A stretch of DNA of 64,000 nucleotides from an uncultured Candidatus Saccharibacteria bacterium. Its GTDB lineage: Bacteria; Patescibacteriota; Minisyncoccia; Phycocordibacterales; JAACPR01. The stretch covers positions 468-64,467 of the forward strand of contig CAZUCU010000001.1 of NCBI GenBank assembly GCA_964618845.1. Reading direction: 5' to 3'. Positions 2,993-48,378 of this stretch are shown here, one piece after another. How positions within the stretch are numbered: position 1 is the first letter of the stretch; each line of letters begins with the position of its first letter. The notes under the pieces were generated by a model. That model saw only the letters and a list, made by a program, of their open reading frames with translations. It was not told the origin of the DNA and ran no database searches. The position numbers and the translations under genes are program-made.

Positions 2993-4078
2993 ATGGATAT
3001 AGAAAATAAAAAAGTTTTAGTAGGTTTATCGGGAGGAGTAGATTCGTCTGTTGCTTGTTTGTTGCTCAAAGAACAAAAATATTCTGTAGAAGCTGTATTT
3101 ATTAAAGTTTGGCAACCTGATTTTATTGAATGTAATTGGCGAGAAGAGATGCGAGATGCAATGCGAGTTTGTATTCAGCTTCAAATCCCTTTTCATTTTT
3201 TAGATTTAGAAAAAGAGTATAAAAAGAGGGTTGCGGATTATTTTATAAACGAATATAAAGCAGGTAGGACCCCAAATCCAGACGTAGTATGTAATAAATA
3301 TATTAAATTTGGTCACATGTTTGATTATGCTAAAAAAAATGGATTTGATTTTGTGGCTACAGGACATTATGTTAGAAATCTAAAAAATAAACTTTTTCGT
3401 GGTAAGGATTTAGACAAAGACCAAAGTTATTTTTTGTGGTCGCTTACCAAAAAAAGATTAAATAAGATTTTGTTTCCAGTAGGAGATTTAAATAAAGAAG
3501 AAGTTAGAAAAATTGCAAAAAAACATAATTTATTCAATTCTAAAAAAAAAGATTCGCAGGGTATTTGTATATTGGGCCCAATTAATATGAAAGATTTTTT
3601 AAAAAAATATATTGATGTCAAAAAAGGTGATGTTTTAGATAAAAGTGGTTCAATTATAGGAACGCACGAAGGTGCAATTTTATATACTATTGGTGAAAGA
3701 CATGGATTTACAATCGATAAAAAACATAAGAGTTCGAGTGATAAAACCCTGTATGTAATAGAAAAAGATGTGGCAAAAAACATAATTATTGTTTCAACGA
3801 GAAACGAGAAGCGAGAAGTAAGAAATATTGAATTGAAAGATGTTTCGTTTATAGATAAAGAAGTTGAGGGAGAAATAGAAATTCAAACAAGATATAGACA
3901 AAAGCCACAAAAAGGAATTTTATTAATAGATAAAAGGGAGAAGCGAGAAGTAAGAAGTAAGAAGTGGAAATTAGAAGCAAATTTTGAAGAAGACCCAGCC
4001 GTTGGGCAATCTGTTGTTTTCTATAAAGGCGATGAGTGTTTAGGTGGAGGAATTATAGATAAAATATTTTTTGAATAA
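2993..4078 (+). CDS. mnmA: tRNA-specific 2-thiouridylase MnmA
   Basis: PP-loop motif VLVGLSGGVDSSVA at the N-terminus. Conserved GHY and cysteine-containing segments of MnmA. 361 aa. Contains in-frame insertions derived from GAGAAGC repeats (EKREVRN and REKREVRSKK). Confidence 0.85.
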   Translation: MDIENKKVLVGLSGGVDSSVACLLLKEQKYSVEAVFIKVWQPDFIECNWREEMRDAMRVCIQLQIPFHFLDLEKEYKKRVADYFINEYKAGRTPNPDVVCNKYIKFGHMFDYAKKNGFDFVATGHYVRNLKNKLFRGKDLDKDQSYFLWSLTKKRLNKILFPVGDLNKEEVRKIAKKHNLFNSKKKDSQGICILGPINMKDFLKKYIDVKKGDVLDKSGSIIGTHEGAILYTIGERHGFTIDKKHKSSSDKTLYVIEKDVAKNIIIVSTRNEKREVRNIELKDVSFIDKEVEGEIEIQTRYRQKPQKGILLIDKREKREVRSKKWKLEANFEEDPAVGQSVVFYKGDECLGGGIIDKIFFE

Positions 4079-4082
4079 ATTT

Positions 4083-4706
4083 TTAGGTTCTCGGATCTGT
4101 TTTTTTCCATTCAATAATTTTTCCAGCTTTTATTTCCATTTTATCTGCTTTCCTTAAAAATTTTTTATTTTTTGGGGGGTAAAATCTTTTATGTGGACTT
4201 TTCTCTAATGCCTCTGCAATCTCAAAAAGTTCTTTTTTACTTGTTATCCACTTAGTTCCAAACCTTCTCATATCAAAGGGTAAAGAATAACTTTCTAAAA
4301 TTTTTTTACCGGTTTTGATATCAAAATATTCATGAAAATAAGAAAGTGCTAATTCTCTGATTGTCTTATAAACGGGATCACGAAATCGAAGAGTCGCATG
4401 ATTAGTTTTGCTTATTGCTCCCCAATGTCCATTTATCTTATAAATAGCCAAAGTATGGTCATCTCCACAATCAGATTTTAAGTCTAATATATAAGATTTT
4501 TGCTTATTAATCCAAAAACATAAAACAGCAAACATTGCTCCCTCCAAACAATGCGCTTTATTTTTTTGGAGAACTCTTTGGGGTGACATATAAGTTTCAC
4601 CATCTTTTTCCCAATTTATTGGTATGGTATCCAAAAAACTTTGAATTTTGATCGGAGTATTTATTTTTTTTAAAATTTTAATTTCTTCTTTTGTAAGTCC
4701 AAACAT
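4083..4706 (-). CDS. Putative transglutaminase-like cysteine peptidase domain protein
   Basis: Cys-His-Asp arrangement resembling the TGc core: KAHCLEGAMFAV, GDDHTLAIY, RFRDP. Confidence 0.4.
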   Translation of the reverse strand: MFGLTKEEIKILKKINTPIKIQSFLDTIPINWEKDGETYMSPQRVLQKNKAHCLEGAMFAVLCFWINKQKSYILDLKSDCGDDHTLAIYKINGHWGAISKTNHATLRFRDPVYKTIRELALSYFHEYFDIKTGKKILESYSLPFDMRRFGTKWITSKKELFEIAEALEKSPHKRFYPPKNKKFLRKADKMEIKAGKIIEWKKTDPRT

Positions 4707-4745
4707 ATATTGATGTTAACAAAAAATCATTTATACTAAAAGTCC

Positions 4746-5144
4746 ATGAAAAAATATGAGCCAAAGAATTTTAAGCTAAAAGTAAAGAAATCAAAAACCG
4801 GACTTGGTCTTTTTGCTGATGAAAATTTATCAAAAGGTCAATGTGTAATTGAATATGTTGGTAGAGAGATTTCTGAAAGAGAAAAATATACAAGTAGAAG
4901 TAAATATTTATTTGAAATAAATTCAAAGATAACTATTGATGGGCAAGATAGAAAAAACAAAGCTAGATATATTAATCATTCTTGTCGCCCAAATTGTGAA
5001 ATTAAAATAAAAAATAAAAAAATCTTTGTAATGTCTCTTAAAAAAATAAAAAAGGGAGAAGAATTAACTTATGACTATGGAGAAGAATATTTTGATGAAC
5101 ACATAAAACCCAAAGGTTGTAGATGTTGCAAGTGTTATAAGTAG
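4746..5144 (+). CDS. SET-domain protein (putative protein-lysine methyltransferase)
   Basis: Canonical SET motifs INHSCRPNC and ELTYDYG. Cys-rich post-SET tail CRCCKCYK. 132 aa. Confidence 0.8.
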   Translation: MKKYEPKNFKLKVKKSKTGLGLFADENLSKGQCVIEYVGREISEREKYTSRSKYLFEINSKITIDGQDRKNKARYINHSCRPNCEIKIKNKKIFVMSLKKIKKGEELTYDYGEEYFDEHIKPKGCRCCKCYK

Positions 5145-5184: not shown

Positions 5185-5661
5185 ATGAAGAAAGGCGTAT
5201 TTATTTTCGTTGTTTTATTAATAATTTCGATTTTATTTATAATTTTTTCTCTATTAAAATTTCAAAAAAATAACAAATTAGAACCCGTATCTAGAGAGGA
5301 AGTACAAAACATCACCGAGGAAGAACCATTTGAATCTTTGGTTGTTAAACATCAATATAAAGATAACAAACATATTTTTGTTGGGGATTTACAATTACCA
5401 ACACCCTGTCATGAATTTGAAGTAAAGATTGAAGACACAAATGACCCAAATATTAAAAATATAAATTTTTTTACTAAACAAAATAATGAACAAGAAACTT
5501 GCGCTCAAATAGTAACACCAAAGGCTTTTCGTATTGAATATACAGGACCGGAAAATTTAGAATTTAAAGCTTTTATAGACAAAATTCCACGAAGATTAAA
5601 TATTTTTAATTTAGCACCAGATGTAGATATTGATGAATTTGAATTATTTATAAAGGGGTAA
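5185..5661 (+). CDS. Hypothetical membrane-anchored / secreted protein
   Basis: N-terminal hydrophobic segment VFIFVVLLIISILFIIFSLL followed by a hydrophilic domain with two Cys. 158 aa. Confidence 0.5.
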   Translation: MKKGVFIFVVLLIISILFIIFSLLKFQKNNKLEPVSREEVQNITEEEPFESLVVKHQYKDNKHIFVGDLQLPTPCHEFEVKIEDTNDPNIKNINFFTKQNNEQETCAQIVTPKAFRIEYTGPENLEFKAFIDKIPRRLNIFNLAPDVDIDEFELFIKG

Positions 5662-5664
5662 ATT

Positions 5665-6501
5665 ATGGAAGTAACAAAAAGAGATGGTACAAGTGAAGAA
5701 TTTAATGAACAAAAATTTTTGAATTCTTTGGAAAAAGCTGGTTTCTCAGATTTAGAAATTAAAATTGCCTTAGAAAAAACAAAGGAATCTTTATACGATG
5801 GTATTACTACTGATTTAATTTATGAAAAAGCATGGGAAACATTAAAAAATATCCAAAATGTTGAACCCATTGTTAAATATTCTCTTAAAAGAGCAATTTT
5901 GGAACTTGGACCTTCTGGTTTTCCTTTTGAACAGTTGGTTGCAAAAATCTATCAAGAATTAGGTTATAAAACCTTAACCGGAATTATGCTTGAAGGAAAA
6001 TGTATAGATCATGAAATAGATGTTATCGCTTATAAAGAAAATGAGCTACTTTTGATTGAAGCTAAATTTCACAATGAACAGTCTATGAAATCTGATACTA
6101 AGGTTGCCCTTTATGTAAAAGCACGTTTTGATGATCTAATTAATATAAAATTTGATATAGACGGTAAAAAAAGAAAGATGACAAGAGGGGTTTTGATTAC
6201 CAATACTGGATTTACTAATAATTCTAAAAAATATATAAAATGTGTTGATACTTTTGATATGATAAGTTGGTCTTATCCAAAAGATCAGGGTTTATTAAAG
6301 ATGATAGAAGATCACCACATTCATCCAATTACTTCCATTCCTAAATTATCTCAAAGGGAAAAGGGAGAGTTAATAGAAGCAGGATATATTTATTGTAAAG
6401 ATATTTTGAAAAATCCAAACATCCTTGATCAATTTAAAATTGTTGGTGAAAAGAAAAATGAAATTTTGAAATTTGCTCGAATAATTTGTAACGAAAAATG
6501 A
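5665..6501 (+). CDS. ATP-cone domain fused to an Mrr-like (PD-(D/E)xK) restriction endonuclease domain
   Basis: N-terminal VTKRDGTSEEFNEQKFLNSLEKAGFS matches the ATP-cone fold (as in NrdR and RNR). C-terminal CIDHEIDVIAYKENELLLIEAKFH has the D...E-x-K signature of Mrr_cat nucleases. Confidence 0.6.
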   Translation: MEVTKRDGTSEEFNEQKFLNSLEKAGFSDLEIKIALEKTKESLYDGITTDLIYEKAWETLKNIQNVEPIVKYSLKRAILELGPSGFPFEQLVAKIYQELGYKTLTGIMLEGKCIDHEIDVIAYKENELLLIEAKFHNEQSMKSDTKVALYVKARFDDLINIKFDIDGKKRKMTRGVLITNTGFTNNSKKYIKCVDTFDMISWSYPKDQGLLKMIEDHHIHPITSIPKLSQREKGELIEAGYIYCKDILKNPNILDQFKIVGEKKNEILKFARIICNEK

Positions 6502-8225
6502 CACATCAAAAATTGCGACAAAAATATTTTGATTTTATAAAAAACAAAGGTTTTGAAATTGTTCCGTCTGCATCACTTGTTCCAGAAAATGATTCTTCGA
6601 TTTTATTTACAACAGCCGGCGTTCAACCGCTCGTTCCATACCTTATGGGAGAAAAACATCCTAAAGGAAACAAACTTGCAAATATTCAAAAATGTACACG
6701 AACAATAGATTTAAACTCAATCGGTGATGATACCCATCTATCTTTTTTTGAAATGATAGGTTATTGGTATTTGGGAGAAAGCAAAAAAAGTCTCAAAAAA
6801 AAGGGTATAGAGACCACTTATGAAATGTTTTTTAGTAAAAAATGTTTTGGACTTGATATCAACAAAGCATATCTCACTTGTTTTGAAGGAAATGAAATTT
6901 CTCCGAAAGATGAGGAAAGTGCAAATTATTGGCAAGATTTAGGAGTTGCAAAAGAAAAAATTTTTTATACTGTTGATTCTAATTGGTGGGAAACAGGGGA
7001 AAATGGTCCTTGTGGTCCTGATAGTGAAGTTTTTTATAATATTTCGGGTGAGAATTTGGACATAAAAAGTAAAGAGGATTTTTTGAAAGCAGATAAAGAG
7101 GGGAAGATTGTAGAAATTGGAAACACAGTTTTTATGTTATTTGAAAAAAAAGATGGAAAAATTGTAGGTGAATTGAAACAACAAAATGTAGATTTTGGAG
7201 GAGGGTTTGAAAGACTTCTAATGGTTGTACAGAATAAAAATTCTGTTTACGAAACTGATTTATTTGAATCTCTTGTAAATAAAGTAGGTGGCAATAAAAT
7301 TATAGCCGATCATTTACGAACTTCTGTAATGATAATTTCTGATAAAGTTTTGCCAAGTAATACAGACCAGGGATATATTTTGAGAAGACTTATCAGAAGA
7401 ATTGTTAGATTTGCTAAAGAATTAAACATTAAAAAAGAAAAACTTCTTGAGGCAACAAATGAAATAGTTAAAATTTATAAAGGGGTATATAAAATTTTAG
7501 ATAAAAAAGAACTACATAAATTATTAGAAGAAGAAATAGAAAAATTTGAAAAAACTTTGGAAAGGGGATTAAAAGAATTTGAAAAAATGAGTAAAAATGG
7601 AAGAATCTCTGGTTATGATACTTTTATTCTTTTTACTACCCACGGTTTTCCATTTGAAATAATAAAAGAATTAGCAGATGAGAAAGGAATTTTTATAGAT
7701 GAAGAGGAATTTAAAAAAGAATTAGAAAAACATAGGAAACTTTCCAAAACCGCATCAGCCGGAAAATTTAGAGGGGGTCTTGCAGGAAATAGTGAAATTG
7801 AAATTAAATATCACACCGCGACACATCTTTTAAATGCGGCGCTTAGAAAATTTTTGGGAGATCACATTTACCAAAAGGGAAGTAACATAAACATTGAAAG
7901 ACTTAGGTTTGATTTTTCTCATAATGAAAAAATAGAAAAAGAAGTCTTGGATAAAATTGAAAATCAAGTGAACAAATGGATAAAAGAAAATATTTCAGTT
8001 GAAAAATTAGAAATGTCATACAATGAAGCCAAAAAAATGGGAGCAATTGGTGTTTTTGATGATAAATATGGAGATATTGTTTCGATTTATAAAATTGGAG
8101 ATATTTCGATGGAACTTTGTGGTGGTCCTCATGTTAAAAATACTGGAGAAATAGGGAAATTTAAAATTATAAAAGAAGAGGCATCTTCCAAAGGTGTTAG
8201 AAGAATAAAGGCCGTACTCGAATAA
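6498..8225 (+). CDS. alaS: Alanine--tRNA ligase, short form lacking the C-terminal DHHA1/oligomerisation region
   Basis: Class II catalytic core (FTTAGVQP). Editing-domain motif HTATHLL. CGGPHV near the C-terminus. Only 575 aa. Confidence 0.85.
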   Translation: MTHQKLRQKYFDFIKNKGFEIVPSASLVPENDSSILFTTAGVQPLVPYLMGEKHPKGNKLANIQKCTRTIDLNSIGDDTHLSFFEMIGYWYLGESKKSLKKKGIETTYEMFFSKKCFGLDINKAYLTCFEGNEISPKDEESANYWQDLGVAKEKIFYTVDSNWWETGENGPCGPDSEVFYNISGENLDIKSKEDFLKADKEGKIVEIGNTVFMLFEKKDGKIVGELKQQNVDFGGGFERLLMVVQNKNSVYETDLFESLVNKVGGNKIIADHLRTSVMIISDKVLPSNTDQGYILRRLIRRIVRFAKELNIKKEKLLEATNEIVKIYKGVYKILDKKELHKLLEEEIEKFEKTLERGLKEFEKMSKNGRISGYDTFILFTTHGFPFEIIKELADEKGIFIDEEEFKKELEKHRKLSKTASAGKFRGGLAGNSEIEIKYHTATHLLNAALRKFLGDHIYQKGSNINIERLRFDFSHNEKIEKEVLDKIENQVNKWIKENISVEKLEMSYNEAKKMGAIGVFDDKYGDIVSIYKIGDISMELCGGPHVKNTGEIGKFKIIKEEASSKGVRRIKAVLE

Positions 8226-8261: not shown

Positions 8262-9350
8262 ATGATGACAAAAGTTTTAGAAACCAAACTCGTTGTTTCT
8301 TTTAAAAGTTCAAGCATTGATCTTTCTGTTGTTGATTATGAAAATAAAATTCCAAGTATATTATTTACAACAAAAAATTTACTTTTGAGTAATAAACAAT
8401 TGACACCAAATGAATTTGTTGAAATTAGCCTGAAATCTTTGCAAAAAATGCTTGTAGATAATTCTTTTGAACTCAAAAAACATTTAAAAGAATCAAATAA
8501 ATGTGAGATTATTTTTCATTCGCCATGGTATTTAGCAGAGTTAATTTCAGAACAACACTCTGAGGGCAAAAAAGGATTGAAGCAATTTTTTTTGGAAAAA
8601 GTAAAACCACCAAAACAAAATGACTATTTGCAAATAGAAAATAAAATAACAAATATAATTTTAAATGGATATCAATTAACGAAATTACGAGATGTTGAAG
8701 GAGATGAAATACAAATAAATATTTATAGAAGTTTTGTCTCCCAAAGTAGTATCATAAAAATTAAAGAAATAATAAAAAATGAATTTAGGCAGTTTTGTTT
8801 TTTTGAATTTTCAACAAGTGCAATGATGATATATGAAACTATAAAAAATATTTTTGTAGATGAGGATAATTGTATTTTTATAAATATTGGTGGTGAAATT
8901 ACAGAAATTGGAGTAATTGAAGATGACATATTGGTTGATTTTATGACTATTCCAATTGGAATACATTTCTTTCAAAGAGAGCTGGAAACCTTTCTAACAG
9001 ACAAAAAAATATTGGATACCATAAAATTTTTATCAAATAACAAGACCGATGAAAATCTTAATCCCAAAAATAACGAGATGTTATCAACTACTGTAAAAAA
9101 TTGGGTAAATGAAGTTTTTGAAATTTTTTTAAATCAAAAAAAAGAATTTCCTAAAAAAGTTTTTGTTTTTACAAACTCAACAGCTGATGAATTTTTTAAA
9201 ATGATTTTTAAAAACAATGAGACATTAAAGAATTTTGAATTTTTCCACGTGATTTATGATACTTTTAGTAGTAGAATGAATATTCCAAGTAATGGAAAGG
9301 TTGATATTGAGTTTTTATTAAGTTCTTATTATTTGTCAGTCAAAAGTTAA
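8262..9350 (+). CDS. Hypothetical protein, possibly with an actin-like ATPase fold (FtsA/PilM-like)
   Basis: Segments SSIDLSVVD and IFINIGGEITEIGVI resemble the phosphate-1 and phosphate-2 motifs of the ASKHA fold. Weak. Confidence 0.3.
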   Translation: MMTKVLETKLVVSFKSSSIDLSVVDYENKIPSILFTTKNLLLSNKQLTPNEFVEISLKSLQKMLVDNSFELKKHLKESNKCEIIFHSPWYLAELISEQHSEGKKGLKQFFLEKVKPPKQNDYLQIENKITNIILNGYQLTKLRDVEGDEIQINIYRSFVSQSSIIKIKEIIKNEFRQFCFFEFSTSAMMIYETIKNIFVDEDNCIFINIGGEITEIGVIEDDILVDFMTIPIGIHFFQRELETFLTDKKILDTIKFLSNNKTDENLNPKNNEMLSTTVKNWVNEVFEIFLNQKKEFPKKVFVFTNSTADEFFKMIFKNNETLKNFEFFHVIYDTFSSRMNIPSNGKVDIEFLLSSYYLSVKS

Positions 9351-9354
9351 ATTT

Positions 9355-10716
9355 TTGTTTATGAGAAAAAAAATTATGCAAGATGTAATACCACCAAATC
9401 AAAAAAGATCTATAAGAGATATTCCTTTGCCAAGAAGTAGAAGGGGAAATTCTGATATAAAAATAAACAATGAGGAAGAATTTTTTCAAGAAAAATCATT
9501 TGGAAAAATAGATACAAAAAATATACCCCCAGACACAGATTATGAAGAGAACTCCTATTATGACGAAGAGAAACCTAAAAAATATTTCAAGAAAATTTTG
9601 TTTCTGTTTTTTTCTTTTTTTGTAATTTTTTCTCTATTGTTTTTTTTAAGGACAAAAGCCGAAGTCACAATTATACCAAAAAAAGAAACATCCAATATCT
9701 CTGGTATATATGAAATCAAAGAAAAAAATCAAAATACAGATTCCAATACTCTTGTATACGATAAGATTTTTGAAATTGAAAAGCAATCCTCAATAACTGC
9801 TGAATCCTCGGGAGAAGAAGAAGTAAAACAAAAAGCTTCTGGAATTATAAAAATATATAACGAATACTCCAAAGAAAAACAAAATTTAGTAAAAAACACT
9901 AGATTTGAGGCCAAAAATGGACTTATATTTAGAGTAGCAAATTCTGTTGAAATACCAGGATATAAAGAAGAAAATGGAAAAATTATTCCAGGCGAAGTAG
10001 AAGCAGAGATATTTGCTGATGAAGAAGGAGAAAAATATAATCTTTCAAAAACAAAATTCACTATTCCAGGATTCCAAAAATATCCAGATCGATATCAAAA
10101 GATTTATGCAGAATCTACAACAGATATTACTGGAGGATTTATTGGTAAAAAATACATAGTTTCTGAAGAAGATAAAAATTCTGCATTAGAAAAGCTGAAA
10201 CAAGATATTAAGGAACAGATGATTAAAGAAGTTAAAAATTATGATGGCAATTTCTTTATTATTTTTGATGAAAGTAAAATTAATTATTCAAACCTTGTAG
10301 AAGAAAACAGTGAAAATAAAGTAAACCTGAAAATAAGTGCTAATGTGGATGCTTATGCTTTTAATCTGAAAGATTTTTCTAAGTTTTTTGTAAAAAATCT
10401 AATCGTTGGTTCACCAGAGGGGGAAGTTATTATTACGAATCTCGACGAAATAAAATTTTCTTTGATTACAATAAAACCAGAAGATGAAAATCTTACAAAT
10501 AAACTAAGTTTGTCTGTTGAGGGCAATATGAATTTTGAGTGGGTAATTGATACTGAAGTATTAGCCCAAGAATTATCAGGGAAAAATAGAACTGAATTAC
10601 GGTCTATTTTGGAAAATAAAATTGCAATTTCTAAAGCTGAATTTGAACTGTCTCCTATGTGGAGCAAAAAATTTCCAAGAAATCCATCAAAAATAAAATT
10701 TACAATTAATAAATAA
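9355..10716 (+). CDS. Hypothetical membrane-anchored protein (about 80-aa cytoplasmic N-terminus, one TM, large extracytoplasmic domain)
   Basis: TM segment FFSFFVIFSLLFFL. 453 aa. Long stop-free ORF. Confidence 0.5.
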   Translation: MFMRKKIMQDVIPPNQKRSIRDIPLPRSRRGNSDIKINNEEEFFQEKSFGKIDTKNIPPDTDYEENSYYDEEKPKKYFKKILFLFFSFFVIFSLLFFLRTKAEVTIIPKKETSNISGIYEIKEKNQNTDSNTLVYDKIFEIEKQSSITAESSGEEEVKQKASGIIKIYNEYSKEKQNLVKNTRFEAKNGLIFRVANSVEIPGYKEENGKIIPGEVEAEIFADEEGEKYNLSKTKFTIPGFQKYPDRYQKIYAESTTDITGGFIGKKYIVSEEDKNSALEKLKQDIKEQMIKEVKNYDGNFFIIFDESKINYSNLVEENSENKVNLKISANVDAYAFNLKDFSKFFVKNLIVGSPEGEVIITNLDEIKFSLITIKPEDENLTNKLSLSVEGNMNFEWVIDTEVLAQELSGKNRTELRSILENKIAISKAEFELSPMWSKKFPRNPSKIKFTINK

Positions 10717-43211: not shown

Positions 43212-43283
43212 GGCCCTATCGTCTAACGGTTAGGACAGCGCCTTCTCAAGGCGTAAATCCGGGTTCGATTCCCGGTAGGGTCA
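43212..43283 (+). tRNA. tRNA-Glu (anticodon CUC)
   Basis: Manual cloverleaf: acceptor GGCCCTA / TAGGGTC (one G-U pair), D-arm GTCT-AACGGTTA-GGAC, anticodon stem GCGCC / GGCGT with loop TTCTCAA (anticodon CTC), T-arm CCGGG-TTCGATT-CCCGG, discriminator A. Resembles canonical tRNA-Glu blocks (TCGTCTA..GG..AGGAC, GGTTCGAWTCC). Confidence 0.8.
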
Positions 43284-43364
43284 CATCATATTTTAGCTTT
43301 ATTTTAAGCCATTTTATTTTTGAAAAAGTTTTGTTTTCCGAATTTTTTGATATGATTATTTCAT

Positions 43365-43949
43365 ATGGAAAAACAACCAAGCGAAGTATATAAAGATGAA
43401 GCAGAAGAAACAAAAAAAGCTTTAGAGAACTTTTTTGATGATAATAGCGATTTCCCAACTGATGTTTCCTCTCTTTTGTACTCTCATGATGAACCTATCA
43501 TTAAAGATAATACAGAAGACCTGTTAATTTATGGAATAGATAAAATATTAAGAGAGTTAGTTATAATAGACGTTAATGAAGAAGATAACCAAGAAGTAAT
43601 TAAAAAATTACGAAATATTTTTCTTCACCAAGTTTCACATACACTCCTTTCATTATCATTTTTTGATGATAAATTAATTAAATCTAAACAATATATAGAC
43701 ATACTTAACAAAATATCTTACCTCGCTCTTTTATTTTGGGTTGATTTAAAAAGTACTGGAAAAGAAGATGTATTTATGAATTACAAAGATTTTTGTAAAA
43801 AATATGAAATAAAAGAATATGATTATTCAAAAGAATTTAATTTTGTTGAAGAATACACAAAAATTATTACTGAATTAAAAAAGTTTCTATTATCTAATGG
43901 AAAGAGGGAAGAAATAAAAAACAAAATTTTAAAAAATATAAACTTATGA
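43365..43949 (+). CDS. Hypothetical protein (first gene after the tRNA; island cargo)
   Basis: 194-aa ORF. Acidic N-terminus. No recognised motif. Confidence 0.45.
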   Translation: MEKQPSEVYKDEAEETKKALENFFDDNSDFPTDVSSLLYSHDEPIIKDNTEDLLIYGIDKILRELVIIDVNEEDNQEVIKKLRNIFLHQVSHTLLSLSFFDDKLIKSKQYIDILNKISYLALLFWVDLKSTGKEDVFMNYKDFCKKYEIKEYDYSKEFNFVEEYTKIITELKKFLLSNGKREEIKNKILKNINL

Positions 43950-44049
43950 ACATCGTAGATATTATATGATTGATAAATTCAATTCTTCTAAACTTTCTTT
44001 AATACAATCTCTATATCCCAAAAGTTCGGAAAGCCACACTTTGGGGTCA

Positions 44050-44151
44050 CCGCGTCAAACGCGGTTTCAGAACCGTATCAAACGGTATGGAACCACCAAA
44101 TTAACAAACCCCGTTTGACGGGGTCGCAGTGAAGGAGCCCGTCAGACGGGC
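44050..44151. repeat. Cluster of four small GC-stem hairpins (CCGCG-TCAAA-CGCGG, ACCGT-ATCAA-ACGGT, CCCCG-TTTGA-CGGGG, GCCCG-TCAGA-CGGGC) abutting the IS element
   Basis: Seen directly. A near-identical copy of the last hairpin occurs at 53239-53253 in the opposite orientation. Confidence 0.6.
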
Positions 44152-44196
44152 ACGTTCTCATCGCGTCAAAAATTCTCTAAAAAAGTTGATCGTTTT

Positions 44197-45078
44197 CTAA
44201 TCAATAGCTTGGAAACACCCAGACAATAATTGCATCGGAGTTTTGAGCTCAATTCCCATGTGCAATCTTTGCTCGTTATAGTATTTCAAATATTTCTCTA
44301 AAGCACAATTAATAACAGAAACGTTTCTTGGAAGAGTGTCTAAACACTCTTCTTGAAGTGTTCTGTTAAATCTTTCAATGTGTGCATTGTCATTAGGTTT
44401 TCCAATTCTAGTGTATCTATGGTTTCTCTTCACTCTGTCATAAAACCATTTTCCAAATTCACTTCCATGATCTGTTTGTATCATTTCAAAATTAAAAACT
44501 GATTGTCTCTCTGCTTCATTCAAAAACTCAACACTTATTGAAGAGTTTAATCTTTCATACGCTTTCGCAAAAGTGTTTCTAGAATAAACATCAATTAAGG
44601 TGAGAACATATATCCTAGTCTTCGGTCCTGTCATAAGGTGTATAGTGTCAATTTGAACCAAAGAACCTGGCTTTATTGGATATGGTCTATCAACAGGAGG
44701 ATGATATCTCTTCCAAGGAGATCTCTTTTTCATAAGTCCATGTCTATCAATTGTTCTTCTAACAGAGTTCAAAGAAACTTGGATATTTTCATTTAAAAGA
44801 TGTTGATGAACAACTTCACTTGTTCTCTTTGTGTCTAATCTGATTTTAATAATTCTTTTAACTACATTTTCTTCTAATTCCTTAGGATGATGATGTGGTC
44901 GTGAAGATTTGGTTGGTATTGGGTGAATACCGAGTTTTTCAGCTTTCTTTACCCATTTACTAATTGTTCCTGGACTTACGCCATATCTTCTAGCAACCGT
45001 TCTAACACCATATCCAATTCGAACCATAGTCGCAGCATCTCTACGAACTTTTGGCATGTTTGGATTATTTGTATACAT
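44197..45078 (-). CDS. IS481-type DDE transposase (rve integrase core)
   Basis: HTH (RYGVSPGTISKWVKK). The rve core spans LVQIDTIHL ... LIDVYSR ... IQTDHGSEF ... HIERFNRTLQEE. Confidence 0.85.
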   Translation of the reverse strand: MYTNNPNMPKVRRDAATMVRIGYGVRTVARRYGVSPGTISKWVKKAEKLGIHPIPTKSSRPHHHPKELEENVVKRIIKIRLDTKRTSEVVHQHLLNENIQVSLNSVRRTIDRHGLMKKRSPWKRYHPPVDRPYPIKPGSLVQIDTIHLMTGPKTRIYVLTLIDVYSRNTFAKAYERLNSSISVEFLNEAERQSVFNFEMIQTDHGSEFGKWFYDRVKRNHRYTRIGKPNDNAHIERFNRTLQEECLDTLPRNVSVINCALEKYLKYYNEQRLHMGIELKTPMQLLSGCFQAID

Positions 45079-45123
45079 AATGCTTGGATATTACTTTTTA
45101 ATGGAAGTGTTTCCAAGCTATTG
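44202..45123 (-). mobile_element. IS481-family insertion sequence (single-ORF DDE transposase with an N-terminal HTH) bounded by 17-bp terminal inverted repeats CAATAGCTTGGAAACAC
   Basis: Inverted repeats at 44202-44218 and 45107-45123 are exact reverse complements. The transposase ORF sits between them. Confidence 0.75.
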
Positions 45124-45147
45124 GGATATTACGGTTGATTTGACAAA

Positions 45148-45654
45148 ATGTTACGTCATGGTAATTTTACCTTAGACTTTAGCACAACACACACCATGAA
45201 AACATACGTACTGAATCGCTCGATATGTTCTCTTCTTGCATTAATCCCACTTTTGGGTTTTACGTATCTTGAGACCGTATATCATCTAATTCCCAGATTT
45301 AATGAAATATTTTCTCTAACACCAAAATCAACGAATTTGAATCACCTTGAACTAGTTTGGGTCCCGATCATCGCTTATATTTTGATTGCAACTATTGTTT
45401 ACCTCTTGTTAAAGATTTTCAAGAAACTGGAAGGTTTTAATAGAGAATGTGTCATTTGGGGTCTTACATGGGGTCTTATTATAGGCATCATCGCTGGTCT
45501 AATCTGGGGTCTGACGTCGGGTCTAATCGGTAGTGTCAATGGTGATCTCATTGGGAACATCATCTTGAATATCATTCTTGATCTCATCGTAGGCCTTATC
45601 TTGAGCCTCATCATAGGTCTAATTATAGGTCTCAAGCATGAATTCGAGTTATAA
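45148..45654 (+). CDS. Hypothetical membrane protein with degenerate GLI(x) glycine-zipper-like repeats
   Basis: GLIIGIIAGLIWGLTSGLIGSVNGDLIGNIILNIILDLIVGLILSLIIGLIIGL. The underlying DNA shows GGTCT(A/T)AT(C/T) periodicity. Confidence 0.45.
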   Translation: MLRHGNFTLDFSTTHTMKTYVLNRSICSLLALIPLLGFTYLETVYHLIPRFNEIFSLTPKSTNLNHLELVWVPIIAYILIATIVYLLLKIFKKLEGFNRECVIWGLTWGLIIGIIAGLIWGLTSGLIGSVNGDLIGNIILNIILDLIVGLILSLIIGLIIGLKHEFEL

Positions 45655-45773
45655 GCGTCAAGCTTAAATTCGAAAACAGTTTACACACAAAACGCACGAC
45701 CTTCGGGTACGGCGTTTTCTTTTTACATAACCACTGCAAATGTCCGACATTTGCAGTAAATGTACTTCATTTT

Positions 45774-45863
45774 CGTCATTCCCGTGAAGACGGGAATTCA
45801 TGCTTTTAAAGATATTAATAAAGCGTGGACCCCCGATACGGCTTCGGGGGTGACGATTATTTT
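45774..45863 (+). repeat. Copy B of the roughly 100-bp hairpin-containing repeat element (copy A at 19974-20070). Contains hairpins ATTCCCGT-GAAG-ACGGGAAT and CCCCCGA-loop-TCGGGGG.
   Basis: Direct alignment by eye with copy A. See findings. Confidence 0.55.
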
Positions 45864-45909
45864 GTTTGTTATTTTGTTGTGACTAGTACAGAGATGATAC
45901 TACAAAACA

Positions 45910-46401
45910 TCACGCCATTTTTAATTTTGATTTTAGGAGTCGTATGTTGTCGGTATTTCGATCTAATTGATTAGAATGTGAAAGCTGAATTTTTTTGATT
46001 TCTTGAACATCACTTTTTACTTCTTTCATATCTATTTTTAATTCGTGTATATCTTCTTCAACTCTATCAAATTGATTTTTGACAACAATTGTAAAATTTT
46101 CAAAATCTGTTCTTAATTCGCTTATTTCCGATTTCATAGAAACAATACTCTCTTTTATAGAAACAATATCTGTTTTTGTAGAAACAATACTCTCTTTTAT
46201 AGAAACAATATCTGTTTTCGTAGACACAATATCTGTTTTCATAGAAACAATATCTGTTTTTGTAGACAAAATATCTTCTTTCATTAAAGATATATCTTTT
46301 TTCATTGGATTAATCACTTTTTTTGTGTGAACAGCAAAAGCACCATTTATTGAAGTATTAACTATAAAAGAAATTTGTTTTAAATCATTTTTTGTTAACA
46401 T
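45910..46401 (-). CDS. Coiled-coil protein with about eight tandem heptad repeats (TKTDIVS / IKESIVS), encoded by 21-bp DNA tandem repeats
   Basis: Protein repeats KTDIVSMKTDIVSTKTDIVSIKESIVSTKTDIVSIKESIVSMKSEI. DNA repeats span 46135-46290. Confidence 0.5.
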   Translation of the reverse strand: MLTKNDLKQISFIVNTSINGAFAVHTKKVINPMKKDISLMKEDILSTKTDIVSMKTDIVSTKTDIVSIKESIVSTKTDIVSIKESIVSMKSEISELRTDFENFTIVVKNQFDRVEEDIHELKIDMKEVKSDVQEIKKIQLSHSNQLDRNTDNIRLLKSKLKMA

Positions 46402-46532
46402 AGTTTGATTCTATCATAAGTGAAAAACAGACTTATCAACATACCCCCCTCCATTTAATTAGTTTTTAATCTCTTTTTAATAAAAACACCGCCCATGTAT
46501 TTGATACTCTGGGCGGTGTTCAGCAAGGTAAA

Positions 46533-47576
46533 TTAATGACGAGGTTTTAAACCCTTCTTGATAGCATTGAGAATCTCTTTGCCAGTAAGAAGAGTCGGCT
46601 CAACAGCACAGTGATGTTCTGTGCCATTGTAAATCCGAGAAAAATTACTCTTCTCATGAACATGCCACATCAATAAATCGGGATGAGTTCCCTCTCCTGA
46701 AAGCCAACCACTTGGTTTAATTCCCCGTTTTTGAGCCTCAGCAAGCCGAAACTGATATGCTACAGCCTGCAGATGAAGACCGGAATTTCCCGAAGCTGAG
46801 ATCATCAGATAACCACCTGATTTGTTTTTGCAAACAACCAAGTCAACTATCTTTTCGGCCTCATTTCCGGAAAATGGATTTTCTGTCTGAAAAATCAGAA
46901 GTTTTTTGGGTCCTGCCCAAGTTTGGATTTCTCGAACTTTGAGTCCAGAAATTTCTTCTCGGGCTTTCTCCCTCAAAACTTCCGCTTCATCCAAAACATT
47001 TTTACCCCAAGAGAGCCATTCTTTGTCATTCTCCTGTTCCATCACTCCTGCTATACAGTGCAAAAGCATAGATCTCCAAGGATGAAGGGTTTTTGGGTTT
47101 GTTGCCCCCCTCTTAGCCATTGGATTATCACTTTCCCAGACGATGATGGCATCAATCGCCTGATTAGTCCAATCACGAACATCGCTCAGTGACTTCCCAA
47201 CTCGATAGGCAGTGACAACCACAGAGGCAAGTTCATCTTTGAACTTTCTACCGACTTTATCCTGCTCATGGACTTTCTCCACAAGCATAGACACAGCAGG
47301 ATTACCAGTAATTCCAAGATTCTCTGCCACCAAGAGAGTAGCCGATTTTGTGGCATTGTCTCCATGACCATCATATGGGCTTCCCGCACAATCAATAAAA
47401 CACTTGTTAGGATAATCCCTCCAAGTCTTATCGTCAGGGAAACCACCAACACAAAAAACTTCCCATCCAAATTTGCGTGATAACAAGTCACTGAATTTTT
47501 CCAGTAACCTGACCGCAAATAATTTGTCCAAATTTGGATGATAAGGAGTCACAACAAAATCATACTGACGAGACAT
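46533..47576 (-). CDS. GC-rich island cargo: hypothetical protein, tentatively a divergent DHH/DHHA1-family phosphoesterase
   Basis: Locally about 45-50% GC against a background near 30%. Weak motif resemblance to NrnA: YHPNLDKLFAV (motif I-like), CFIDCAGS (II-like), YDGHGDN (III-like), SGNSGLH (GGGH-like). Confidence 0.35.
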   Translation of the reverse strand: MSRQYDFVVTPYHPNLDKLFAVRLLEKFSDLLSRKFGWEVFCVGGFPDDKTWRDYPNKCFIDCAGSPYDGHGDNATKSATLLVAENLGITGNPAVSMLVEKVHEQDKVGRKFKDELASVVVTAYRVGKSLSDVRDWTNQAIDAIIVWESDNPMAKRGATNPKTLHPWRSMLLHCIAGVMEQENDKEWLSWGKNVLDEAEVLREKAREEISGLKVREIQTWAGPKKLLIFQTENPFSGNEAEKIVDLVVCKNKSGGYLMISASGNSGLHLQAVAYQFRLAEAQKRGIKPSGWLSGEGTHPDLLMWHVHEKSNFSRIYNGTEHHCAVEPTLLTGKEILNAIKKGLKPRH

Positions 47577-47682
47577 TTTTTCTCCTTTTTTGGGGTTGTT
47601 TCTTGCTCAATATCACCATGATAAAGAACTTCAAGTCGCCTTGATTAATAACACAATTTTTGAATTTTGTAAATACAAAATG

Positions 47683-47711
47683 GCCCCGACCCATTCCATG
47701 GGTCGGGGCCT
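47683..47711 (-). terminator. Intrinsic terminator: 12-bp GC-rich stem GGCCCCGACCCA / TGGGTCGGGGCC, T-run on the - strand
   Basis: Seen directly. Lies downstream of the - strand ORF 47720-48298. Confidence 0.7.
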
Positions 47712-47719
47712 AAAAAGAA

Positions 47720-48298
47720 CTAAGCCTCTGGCGCCTTTTTCTTACGCTTAGGCTTAGCAGGAGAAGTTTCCTCCAATGATGCCTGAGTGGCCATCATTGC
47801 CCTGTCCAGAGCCTCCTGGGCTTCTTTTGCGAGCCGAAAACCATTGTTTTGGATCGTCGGCTTACGCAGAGTTCTCCTCGAACTCAGAACTTGAAGCTCG
47901 TTGTTGACCCTTTCAACATCCGAGCCCCGAAGCCCCCTCTTTTGAGTAAGCCCTTTTGAAACCCTTCTAAAATAGGGTCCAAAAGAGGCCCAGGCAAACG
48001 CCTTATTTTTTCCATTCTCCAAAATCTTGGGAGTGGAAAAAACAACCACGTCTCCGGGCTCGACTCTTTCGACATCCCGTTCAAACCAAGACTCGCCCCT
48101 GGCCTGATGGAATTGATACTGACCAGAGAGCGCGATATAGACATCGCGATCCACTTCTGGACAGTACACAAAAGAAAACCCGTCCTCCGGAAAGGGGATG
48201 TCTTTTAGAAACCCCCAATGAACATGGACATGGTCCGGAAGACCCAGATCATCCAAGACCCCCGCAAAGAGGTCTTGAAAATTCTGAATGGTTAACAT
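47720..48298 (-). CDS. GC-rich island cargo: hypothetical protein with a Lys-rich C-terminal tail
   Basis: 192-aa ORF. High GC relative to the genome. No motif recognised. Confidence 0.45.
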   Translation of the reverse strand: MLTIQNFQDLFAGVLDDLGLPDHVHVHWGFLKDIPFPEDGFSFVYCPEVDRDVYIALSGQYQFHQARGESWFERDVERVEPGDVVVFSTPKILENGKNKAFAWASFGPYFRRVSKGLTQKRGLRGSDVERVNNELQVLSSRRTLRKPTIQNNGFRLAKEAQEALDRAMMATQASLEETSPAKPKRKKKAPEA

Positions 48299-48378
48299 AT
48301 TATTCTCCTGTTTTTCCTCCCAAAGTCTGCCCCTTTTGACAGATTGTTCGGTTGGTCTGCAAAAATTATACTCAATTT

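Follow-up and report, generated by a model that had tools for sequence, protein, structure and literature searches.

What does a SET-domain protein of 132 amino acids do in a bacterium with a small genome, and is its target a protein of a host or one of the bacterium's own? The question is posed by a gene at 4746..5144 (+) of a 64,000-nucleotide stretch of DNA (the window), which covers positions 468 to 64,467 of contig CAZUCU010000001.1, assembly GCA_964618845.1, from an uncultured Candidatus Saccharibacteria bacterium. A first-pass annotation, made from the sequence, had named two candidates, a host-interaction effector and a methyltransferase of nucleoid or ribosomal proteins. The evidence assembled here favours the direction of the second, methylation of the bacterium's own proteins. 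We put at about 0.6 the probability that the gene encodes a functional, cytoplasmic protein-lysine N-methyltransferase dependent on S-adenosylmethionine (AdoMet), minimal in design and acting on a conserved protein of its own cell; its role is probably one of housekeeping protein-lysine methylation and not that of a host effector. The small-genome setting assumed by the first-pass annotation agrees with what was found, the window being of Patescibacteria type with a GC content of ~29%, and the named homologues coming from Vogelbacteria, Paceibacterota and Patescibacteria.

The SET protein and its family

The open reading frame (ORF) contains all three signatures that had been read from it by eye, NHSCRPN, ELTYDYG and CRCCKC, and a glycine-rich motif ahead of them:

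4746..5144 (+): SET gene, 132 amino acids, ATG start, TAG stop at 5142-5144; SET core with a compact post-SET Cys cluster
4800..4811 (+): GLGL, residues 19-22; Gly-rich motif that opens the SET domain and binds AdoMet, aligning to GLGL of KMT2D
4974..4994 (+): NHSCRPN, residues 77-83; SET-C pseudoknot and AdoMet motif, with C80 as predicted fourth zinc ligand
5061..5081 (+): ELTYDYG, residues 106-112; aligns to GEELTYDY of KMT2D
5118..5135 (+): CRCCKC, residues 125-130; compact post-SET cluster

The Pfam SET profile (PF00856) aligns to the protein along its full length, positions 1-105 of 105, with E=1.3e-25 and 90.3 bits (gathering cut-off 22.4). A phmmer search of the PDB returned 129 SET chains, headed by the SET and post-SET domains of KMT2D (3e-21, residues 13-131 of the query), and identity to the top MLL1, MLL3 and MLL4 chains is 36-40%, post-SET included. 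The SET-domain identity of the ORF is therefore far beyond chance, and the gene is already auto-annotated as 'SET domain-containing protein'. NCBIfam holds no model for the subfamily and gave a sub-threshold match to LegAS4 only. An AlphaFold2 model built from 120 sequences (predicted local distance difference test, pLDDT, 90.6; predicted template-modelling score, pTM, 0.83) has the SET fold, and Foldseek matched it to the SET and post-SET domains of GLP/G9a with template-modelling (TM) scores of up to 0.82. This model replaced a poor one from an 18-sequence alignment, which reached a pLDDT of 63.7.

Conservation was counted in an alignment of the 120 best homologues, which are 126-159 amino acids long and 59-75% identical to the SET protein. 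G19, G21, Y37, Y54, Y75, N77, H78 and Y111 are invariant (120/120), Y109 is kept in 119, and L20 and L22 are conserved in at least 90%. From alignment to MLL1 and DIM-5 and established SET enzymology, we take Y109 to be the Phe/Tyr-switch position and Y111 the catalytic Tyr. A pseudogene or chance ORF was rejected on the strength of this conservation, and the related sequences are full-length proteins with invariant catalytic residues, not the fragments that the first-pass annotation had guarded against.

The post-SET region is a more qualified case. C125 is present in all 120 homologues and C127 in 119, while position 130 holds Cys in 114 and His in four; at position 80, the Cys of NHSC, 113 homologues have Cys and seven have His. 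The residue at C128, by comparison, lies at a variable position, usually L, V or A. The Cys cluster announced by the first-pass annotation is real, with C125, C127 and C130 as its conserved Cys pattern. Across the family the motif reads C-[RK]-C-x-K-[CH], and G-C-x-C-x-x-C is matched by 110 of the 120. The Cys/His-only exchange at positions 80 and 130 is a metal-ligand pattern and supports a zinc site, the predicted ligands of its single ion being C125, C127 and C130 together with C80. The compact CxCxxC variant was not found described in the searchable literature; the family defines it, and it is worth recording.

These residues suggest how the enzyme might work. The SET core would close over AdoMet with the short C-terminal post-SET segment, and Y111 would form the lysine channel with other conserved tyrosines. 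Since Y109 places a Tyr at the switch position, the analogy with MLL1 and DIM-5 would favour mono- or dimethylation, not trimethylation, and mono- or dimethyl-lysine is the predicted product. The protein is basic (isoelectric point, pI, 9.5) and very hydrophilic, with a maximum 15-residue hydropathy of 0.35; its homologues are likewise basic (pI 8.9-10.0), many with Lys-rich N- and C-terminal tails. An acidic or nucleic-acid-associated substrate would be most likely for such an enzyme.

The first-pass annotation had called SET methyltransferases rare in bacteria, a view that the distribution of this subfamily contradicts. A protein search across 5.8 billion proteins found 4047 relatives, and a GTDB scan with one genome per species found the subfamily in at least 563 species representatives. 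An exhaustive search with HMMER, run against 1.84 billion representatives of clusters at 50% identity, gave 21,030 matches at E<=1e-3, 5,506 at <=1e-10 and 110 at <=1e-30. SET genes had already been recorded in free-living and environmental bacteria in a 2014 review (PMC3980110). The top representative of the HMMER search, P0123, has 264 amino acids and matches in two SET stretches (E=9.3e-94); it looks like the small SET unit duplicated in tandem or fused.

The best 80 of the at least 563 GTDB loci come mostly from Paceibacteria-type metagenome-assembled genomes, and identity runs at 55-75% across deep Paceibacteria lineages. Seventeen of the 80 are alphaproteobacterial, with homologues of 54-62% identity and a locus GC of 60-71%; the carriers are Methyloceanibacter (among them a cultured isolate, M. 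marginalis R-67177), Hyphomonadaceae and one Rhizobium-labelled genome. In a rough neighbour-joining tree these sequences nest at no fewer than two places among those of Paceibacteria, which suggests old lateral exchange of the gene between these very different lineages. A mobile-element origin has no supporting evidence: the SET protein had no phage match, and the plasmid matches were distant SETs only (at most 38%), on Burkholderiaceae megaplasmids and annotated 'SET domain-containing protein-lysine N-methyltransferase'. What emerges is a minimal SET enzyme that is widespread and strongly conserved in Paceibacteria and in some free-living Alphaproteobacteria.

The neighbouring CPR-C4 gene

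The SET gene is transcribed away from a gene for a protein of 207 amino acids. The gene order in the window is mnmA (2993..4078), the 207-amino-acid gene, SET, a 158-amino-acid membrane protein, an ATP-cone and Mrr_cat protein, alaS, two unknown genes, infA and rpsM. The features next to SET are:

4083..4706 (-): CPR-C4 homologue, 207 amino acids, a vasohibin-like (transglutaminase-fold) cysteine protease by profile match to 7ob6/7pjo
4707..4745 (between the two genes): divergent intergenic region of 39 bp, CPR-C4 homologue to SET, with one sigma-70-like site
4710-4737 (+): sigma-70-like site TTGATG-16-TATACT, a consensus match only, ending 8 nt before the SET start codon

Promoter-like sites in the 4707..4745 region are not enriched over shuffles.

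The 207-amino-acid protein has no match in Pfam. A profile of 22 sequences of its family, searched against the PDB, found 'CPR-C4' (7ob6/7pjo) with E=2e-84; C53 and H84 are invariant in the 22 homologues and L106 aligns with L115 of CPR-C4, so that the window protein belongs to the same family with the Cys-His-Leu triad positions kept. CPR-C4 was described by Cornish et al. in 2022 as a vasohibin-like cysteine protease with a Cys-His-Leu(carbonyl) triad, C61/H93/L115, and its cleavage of labelled casein showed it to be an active protease (PMC9108980). Its pocket is positively charged, which implies an acidic substrate; the physiological substrate is not known (PMC9108980). The published gene (PDB 7ob6/7ob7/7pjo) lies on a thermophilic Adlerbacteria-like contig with no informative neighbours, and its position gave the authors no clue to function (PMC9108980). 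The window gene and those of 25 other species, in contrast, lie at or near a SET gene.

This linkage was surveyed from the SET side by clustering the ORFs of the 80 GTDB species loci, 63 of them non-alphaproteobacterial, and locating CPR-C4 by tblastn. A CPR-C4 homologue occurs within 5 kb of SET, always upstream, in 26 of the 80 loci, that is 26 of the 63, or ~40% of the Patescibacteria-type species sampled. It is directly adjacent in 14 loci (~20% of those species), at 51-222 nt, and 13 of these pairs are divergent, as in the window, and one co-directional. No other neighbouring family accompanies SET nearly as persistently, the next ones being present in at most 14 loci. The divergent pair recurs in at least four SET clades, joined by a co-directional clade, in loci whose GC ranges from 0.28 to 0.62; when 15 adjacent loci were compared pairwise, only 10 of the 105 pairs had in common any of the two genes next out on either outer flank. 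The pair thus persists while its outer surroundings change. Such a pairing was not found described in the searchable literature. Other neighbours considered as partners (VanY, GH18, BacA/UppP, PAP2, cupin, TruB and a CofE-like ligase) were set aside as unrelated housekeeping genes with at most 14 loci each.

Two further neighbours from other loci are recorded here in their own right, each with one example:

L061:4227-4943 (-): CofE-like gene, E=7.6e-11
L026:5401-6990 (-): flavin amine oxidoreductase, Pfam Amino_oxidase, E=9.5e-17

Across one Kaiserbacteria-like clade, CPR-C4 is followed by a CofE-like gene, in some cases by a cupin gene as well, and then by SET. The CofE-like gene (F420-0:gamma-glutamyl ligase, matched in its N-terminal part only) stands between CPR-C4 and SET in L032, L041, L042, L061 and L068, and a glutamyl ligase beside a protease with a pocket for acidic substrates is suggestive. 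In the Methyloceanibacter-type loci L019, L025, L026, L030, L037, L044 and L063 (~5400-7000, -), a flavin amine oxidoreductase of ~530 amino acids is convergent with SET. Amino_oxidase is the domain class of LSD1-type demethylases and also of many unrelated CrtI-like oxidoreductases; the loci are closely related, and this pairing may be plain synteny.

The positively charged pocket of CPR-C4 leads us to propose a shared acidic substrate, since a basic SET enzyme and a basic protease pocket would both call for an acidic partner. Functional coupling of this kind, lysine methylation together with proteolytic trimming, is a tentative reading that we hold to be the less probable outcome. A stricter form, a two-enzyme module of Paceibacteria in which the two proteins would share one acidic target segment, probably C-terminal, in a conserved bacterial protein, is more speculative again. 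Several observations count against a tight link. Seen from the protease, the linkage is weak: SET occurs in 10 of 80 CPR-C4-centred metagenome loci, and in ~4 of the 40 that extend for 1.5 kb or more on each side. No neighbour dominates CPR-C4 loci, which we counted against a tight functional unit. CPR-C4 was not found within 5 kb of SET in any of the 17 alphaproteobacterial loci, and was absent from the flanks in 37 of the 63 others. The adjacency could also be partly inherited synteny from few independent events. A strong reciprocal SET/CPR-C4 operon was rejected because only ~10% of CPR-C4 loci carry SET. Even so graded, the pairing ties the SET family to a crystallised, catalytically active protease and points to a search for a shared substrate. 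If the module were real, the orphan protease CPR-C4 would for the first time have a functional context, and prokaryotes would have a counterpart to the tail-modification codes of eukaryotes.

Candidate substrates

If the enzyme methylates a protein of its own cell, the candidates differ in how well they survive. The foremost is a more specific version of the preferred explanation, in which the substrate is a DNA-binding architectural protein of the nucleoid. Small prokaryotic SET proteins that act on their own chromatin proteins provide a precedent (PMC3980110), and a basic enzyme with Lys-rich tails could tether to nucleic acid. Among the conserved SET neighbours of the 80 loci, however, there is no nucleoid-protein gene, and the CPR-C4 pocket points to an acidic substrate, whereas HU- or Hc1-type proteins are basic. 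We regard this version as possible but rather doubtful.

A substrate in the translation apparatus, a ribosomal protein or an elongation factor, is somewhat less probable again. Yeast SET-domain enzymes of the Rkm and Efm groups methylate ribosomal proteins and elongation factors. In the window the SET gene stands among mnmA, alaS, infA and rpsM, a handful of other loci have truB or pheT-like genes as neighbours, and a universal substrate would account for the high conservation across phyla. The translation-gene context of the window (mnmA, alaS, infA) is, however, not conserved among SET loci: the mnmA and alaS families occur in at most ~5, which are essentially copies of the same genome.

The first-pass annotation had led with a host-directed effector, by which an episymbiont would deliver the SET protein into its partner cell and methylate histones or other host proteins there, as Legionella RomA/LegAS4 and Chlamydia NUE do. 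The source organism is a small-genome Patescibacterium, the Lys-rich tails of the homologues look like nuclear-localisation-like tracts, and the best matches in sequence and structure are eukaryotic Set1/MLL methyltransferases of H3K4. Most other evidence runs the other way. A hydropathy scan of the 132 amino acids found no signal peptide, no hydrophobic N-terminus of the Sec type and no membrane segment. On the NCBIfam model for LegAS4/AnkI (NF043024) the protein reaches 44.1 bits, where 550 is the cut-off, and the match is confined to the SET part. An identity of 55-75% over deep lineages, in loci of 0.28-0.62 GC, is atypical for effectors, and the family is present at 54-62% identity in free-living Methyloceanibacter, cultured isolate included, and in Hyphomonadaceae. 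The known partners of Paceibacteria-type bacteria of the candidate phyla radiation (CPR) are, moreover, mostly prokaryotes, which are without eukaryotic histones. We therefore consider a host effector unlikely. The wide distribution of the family argues against the reflex by which a bacterial SET protein is read as an effector of host chromatin. Least probable of all is a SET fold acting on a small molecule or on another type of residue, as Burkholderia BurB does on methionine and SETD3 on histidine, given that the lysine-channel tyrosines do not vary among the 120 homologues and that no biosynthetic gene cluster surrounds the SET gene.

The reading that remains ahead is a lysine methyltransferase with a conserved endogenous substrate, which fits the missing signal peptide and the 55-75% identity across deep lineages better than a host effector does; from this we infer that the substrate is a protein of the bacterium itself. 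Three points weigh on the other side. The post-SET spacing, CxCxxC, is not the canonical C-x-C-x4-C, and the third post-SET Cys fails to line up with KMT2D in the HMMER alignment. A literature search for SET with Patescibacteria, CPR or vasohibin found nothing relevant. Finally, the closest relatives with known function are the eukaryotic H3K4 methyltransferases, a likeness in sequence that keeps a eukaryote-directed role conceivable.

Other window features and known SET systems

Several features elsewhere in the window deserve a brief record. Downstream of SET, the gene at 5665..6501 (+) encodes a protein of 278 amino acids with an ATP-cone (E=4.9e-9) and an Mrr-type catalytic domain (E=3.3e-8), and overlaps alaS by 4 nt; the combination of an ATP-cone with an Mrr-type restriction endonuclease is an unusual fusion. 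Two adjoining ORFs at 8262..9350 and 9355..10716 (+), of 362 and 453 amino acids, have no significant Pfam family and are conserved in the near-identical contigs L001-L004. Between ~31000 and 44000 the GC skew passes from positive to negative, with its cumulative maximum near 31-32 kb, and the main gene orientation switches from + to -. Convergent gene orientation and the change of skew together suggest a replication terminus in this region. In 43212..48300 the GC content rises to 0.37-0.39, against ~0.29, in a patch after a tRNA gene (43212-43283); this patch is probably an insertion sequence or small foreign island. It contains, with several ORFs that have no Pfam matches, one identifiable gene:

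44197-45078 (-): rve-family transposase/integrase

How, then, does the SET protein compare with the systems already described? With the Set1/KMT2 enzymes (MLL1-4) it shares the GxG, NHSC and ELTYDY motifs, the Tyr at the switch and a Cys cluster after the SET core. It differs from them in being a stand-alone protein of 132 amino acids, without SET-N extension, Win motif or other domains, with a shorter SET-I insert and with CxCxxC in place of the CxCx4C of KMT2. The protein is bacterial, and neither WRAD partners nor histone H3 would be expected. The resemblance to Set1/KMT2 (COMPASS-type) enzymes is limited to the catalytic core.

It also differs from the SET nucleomodulins. LegAS4/RomA, NUE, Burkholderia BtSET and Bacillus BaSET are secreted effectors of larger size, come from pathogens that infect eukaryotes and carry ankyrin or other domains, whereas the window protein scores 44 bits, far under the family cut-off of 550, has no detected Sec-type signal and belongs to a family found in free-living bacteria.

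The closest parallels in function may be the prokaryotic SET proteins with endogenous substrates, Go1-SET of Methanosarcina mazei, which acts on MC1-alpha, and cpnSET of Chlamydia pneumoniae, which acts on Hc1 (PMC3980110). By description these too are stand-alone proteins, and the own-protein target is a property of theirs; the window family differs in belonging to Paceibacteria and Alphaproteobacteria and in its gene context. By this comparison Go1-SET and cpnSET offer the likeliest functional analogy for the SET protein of the window.
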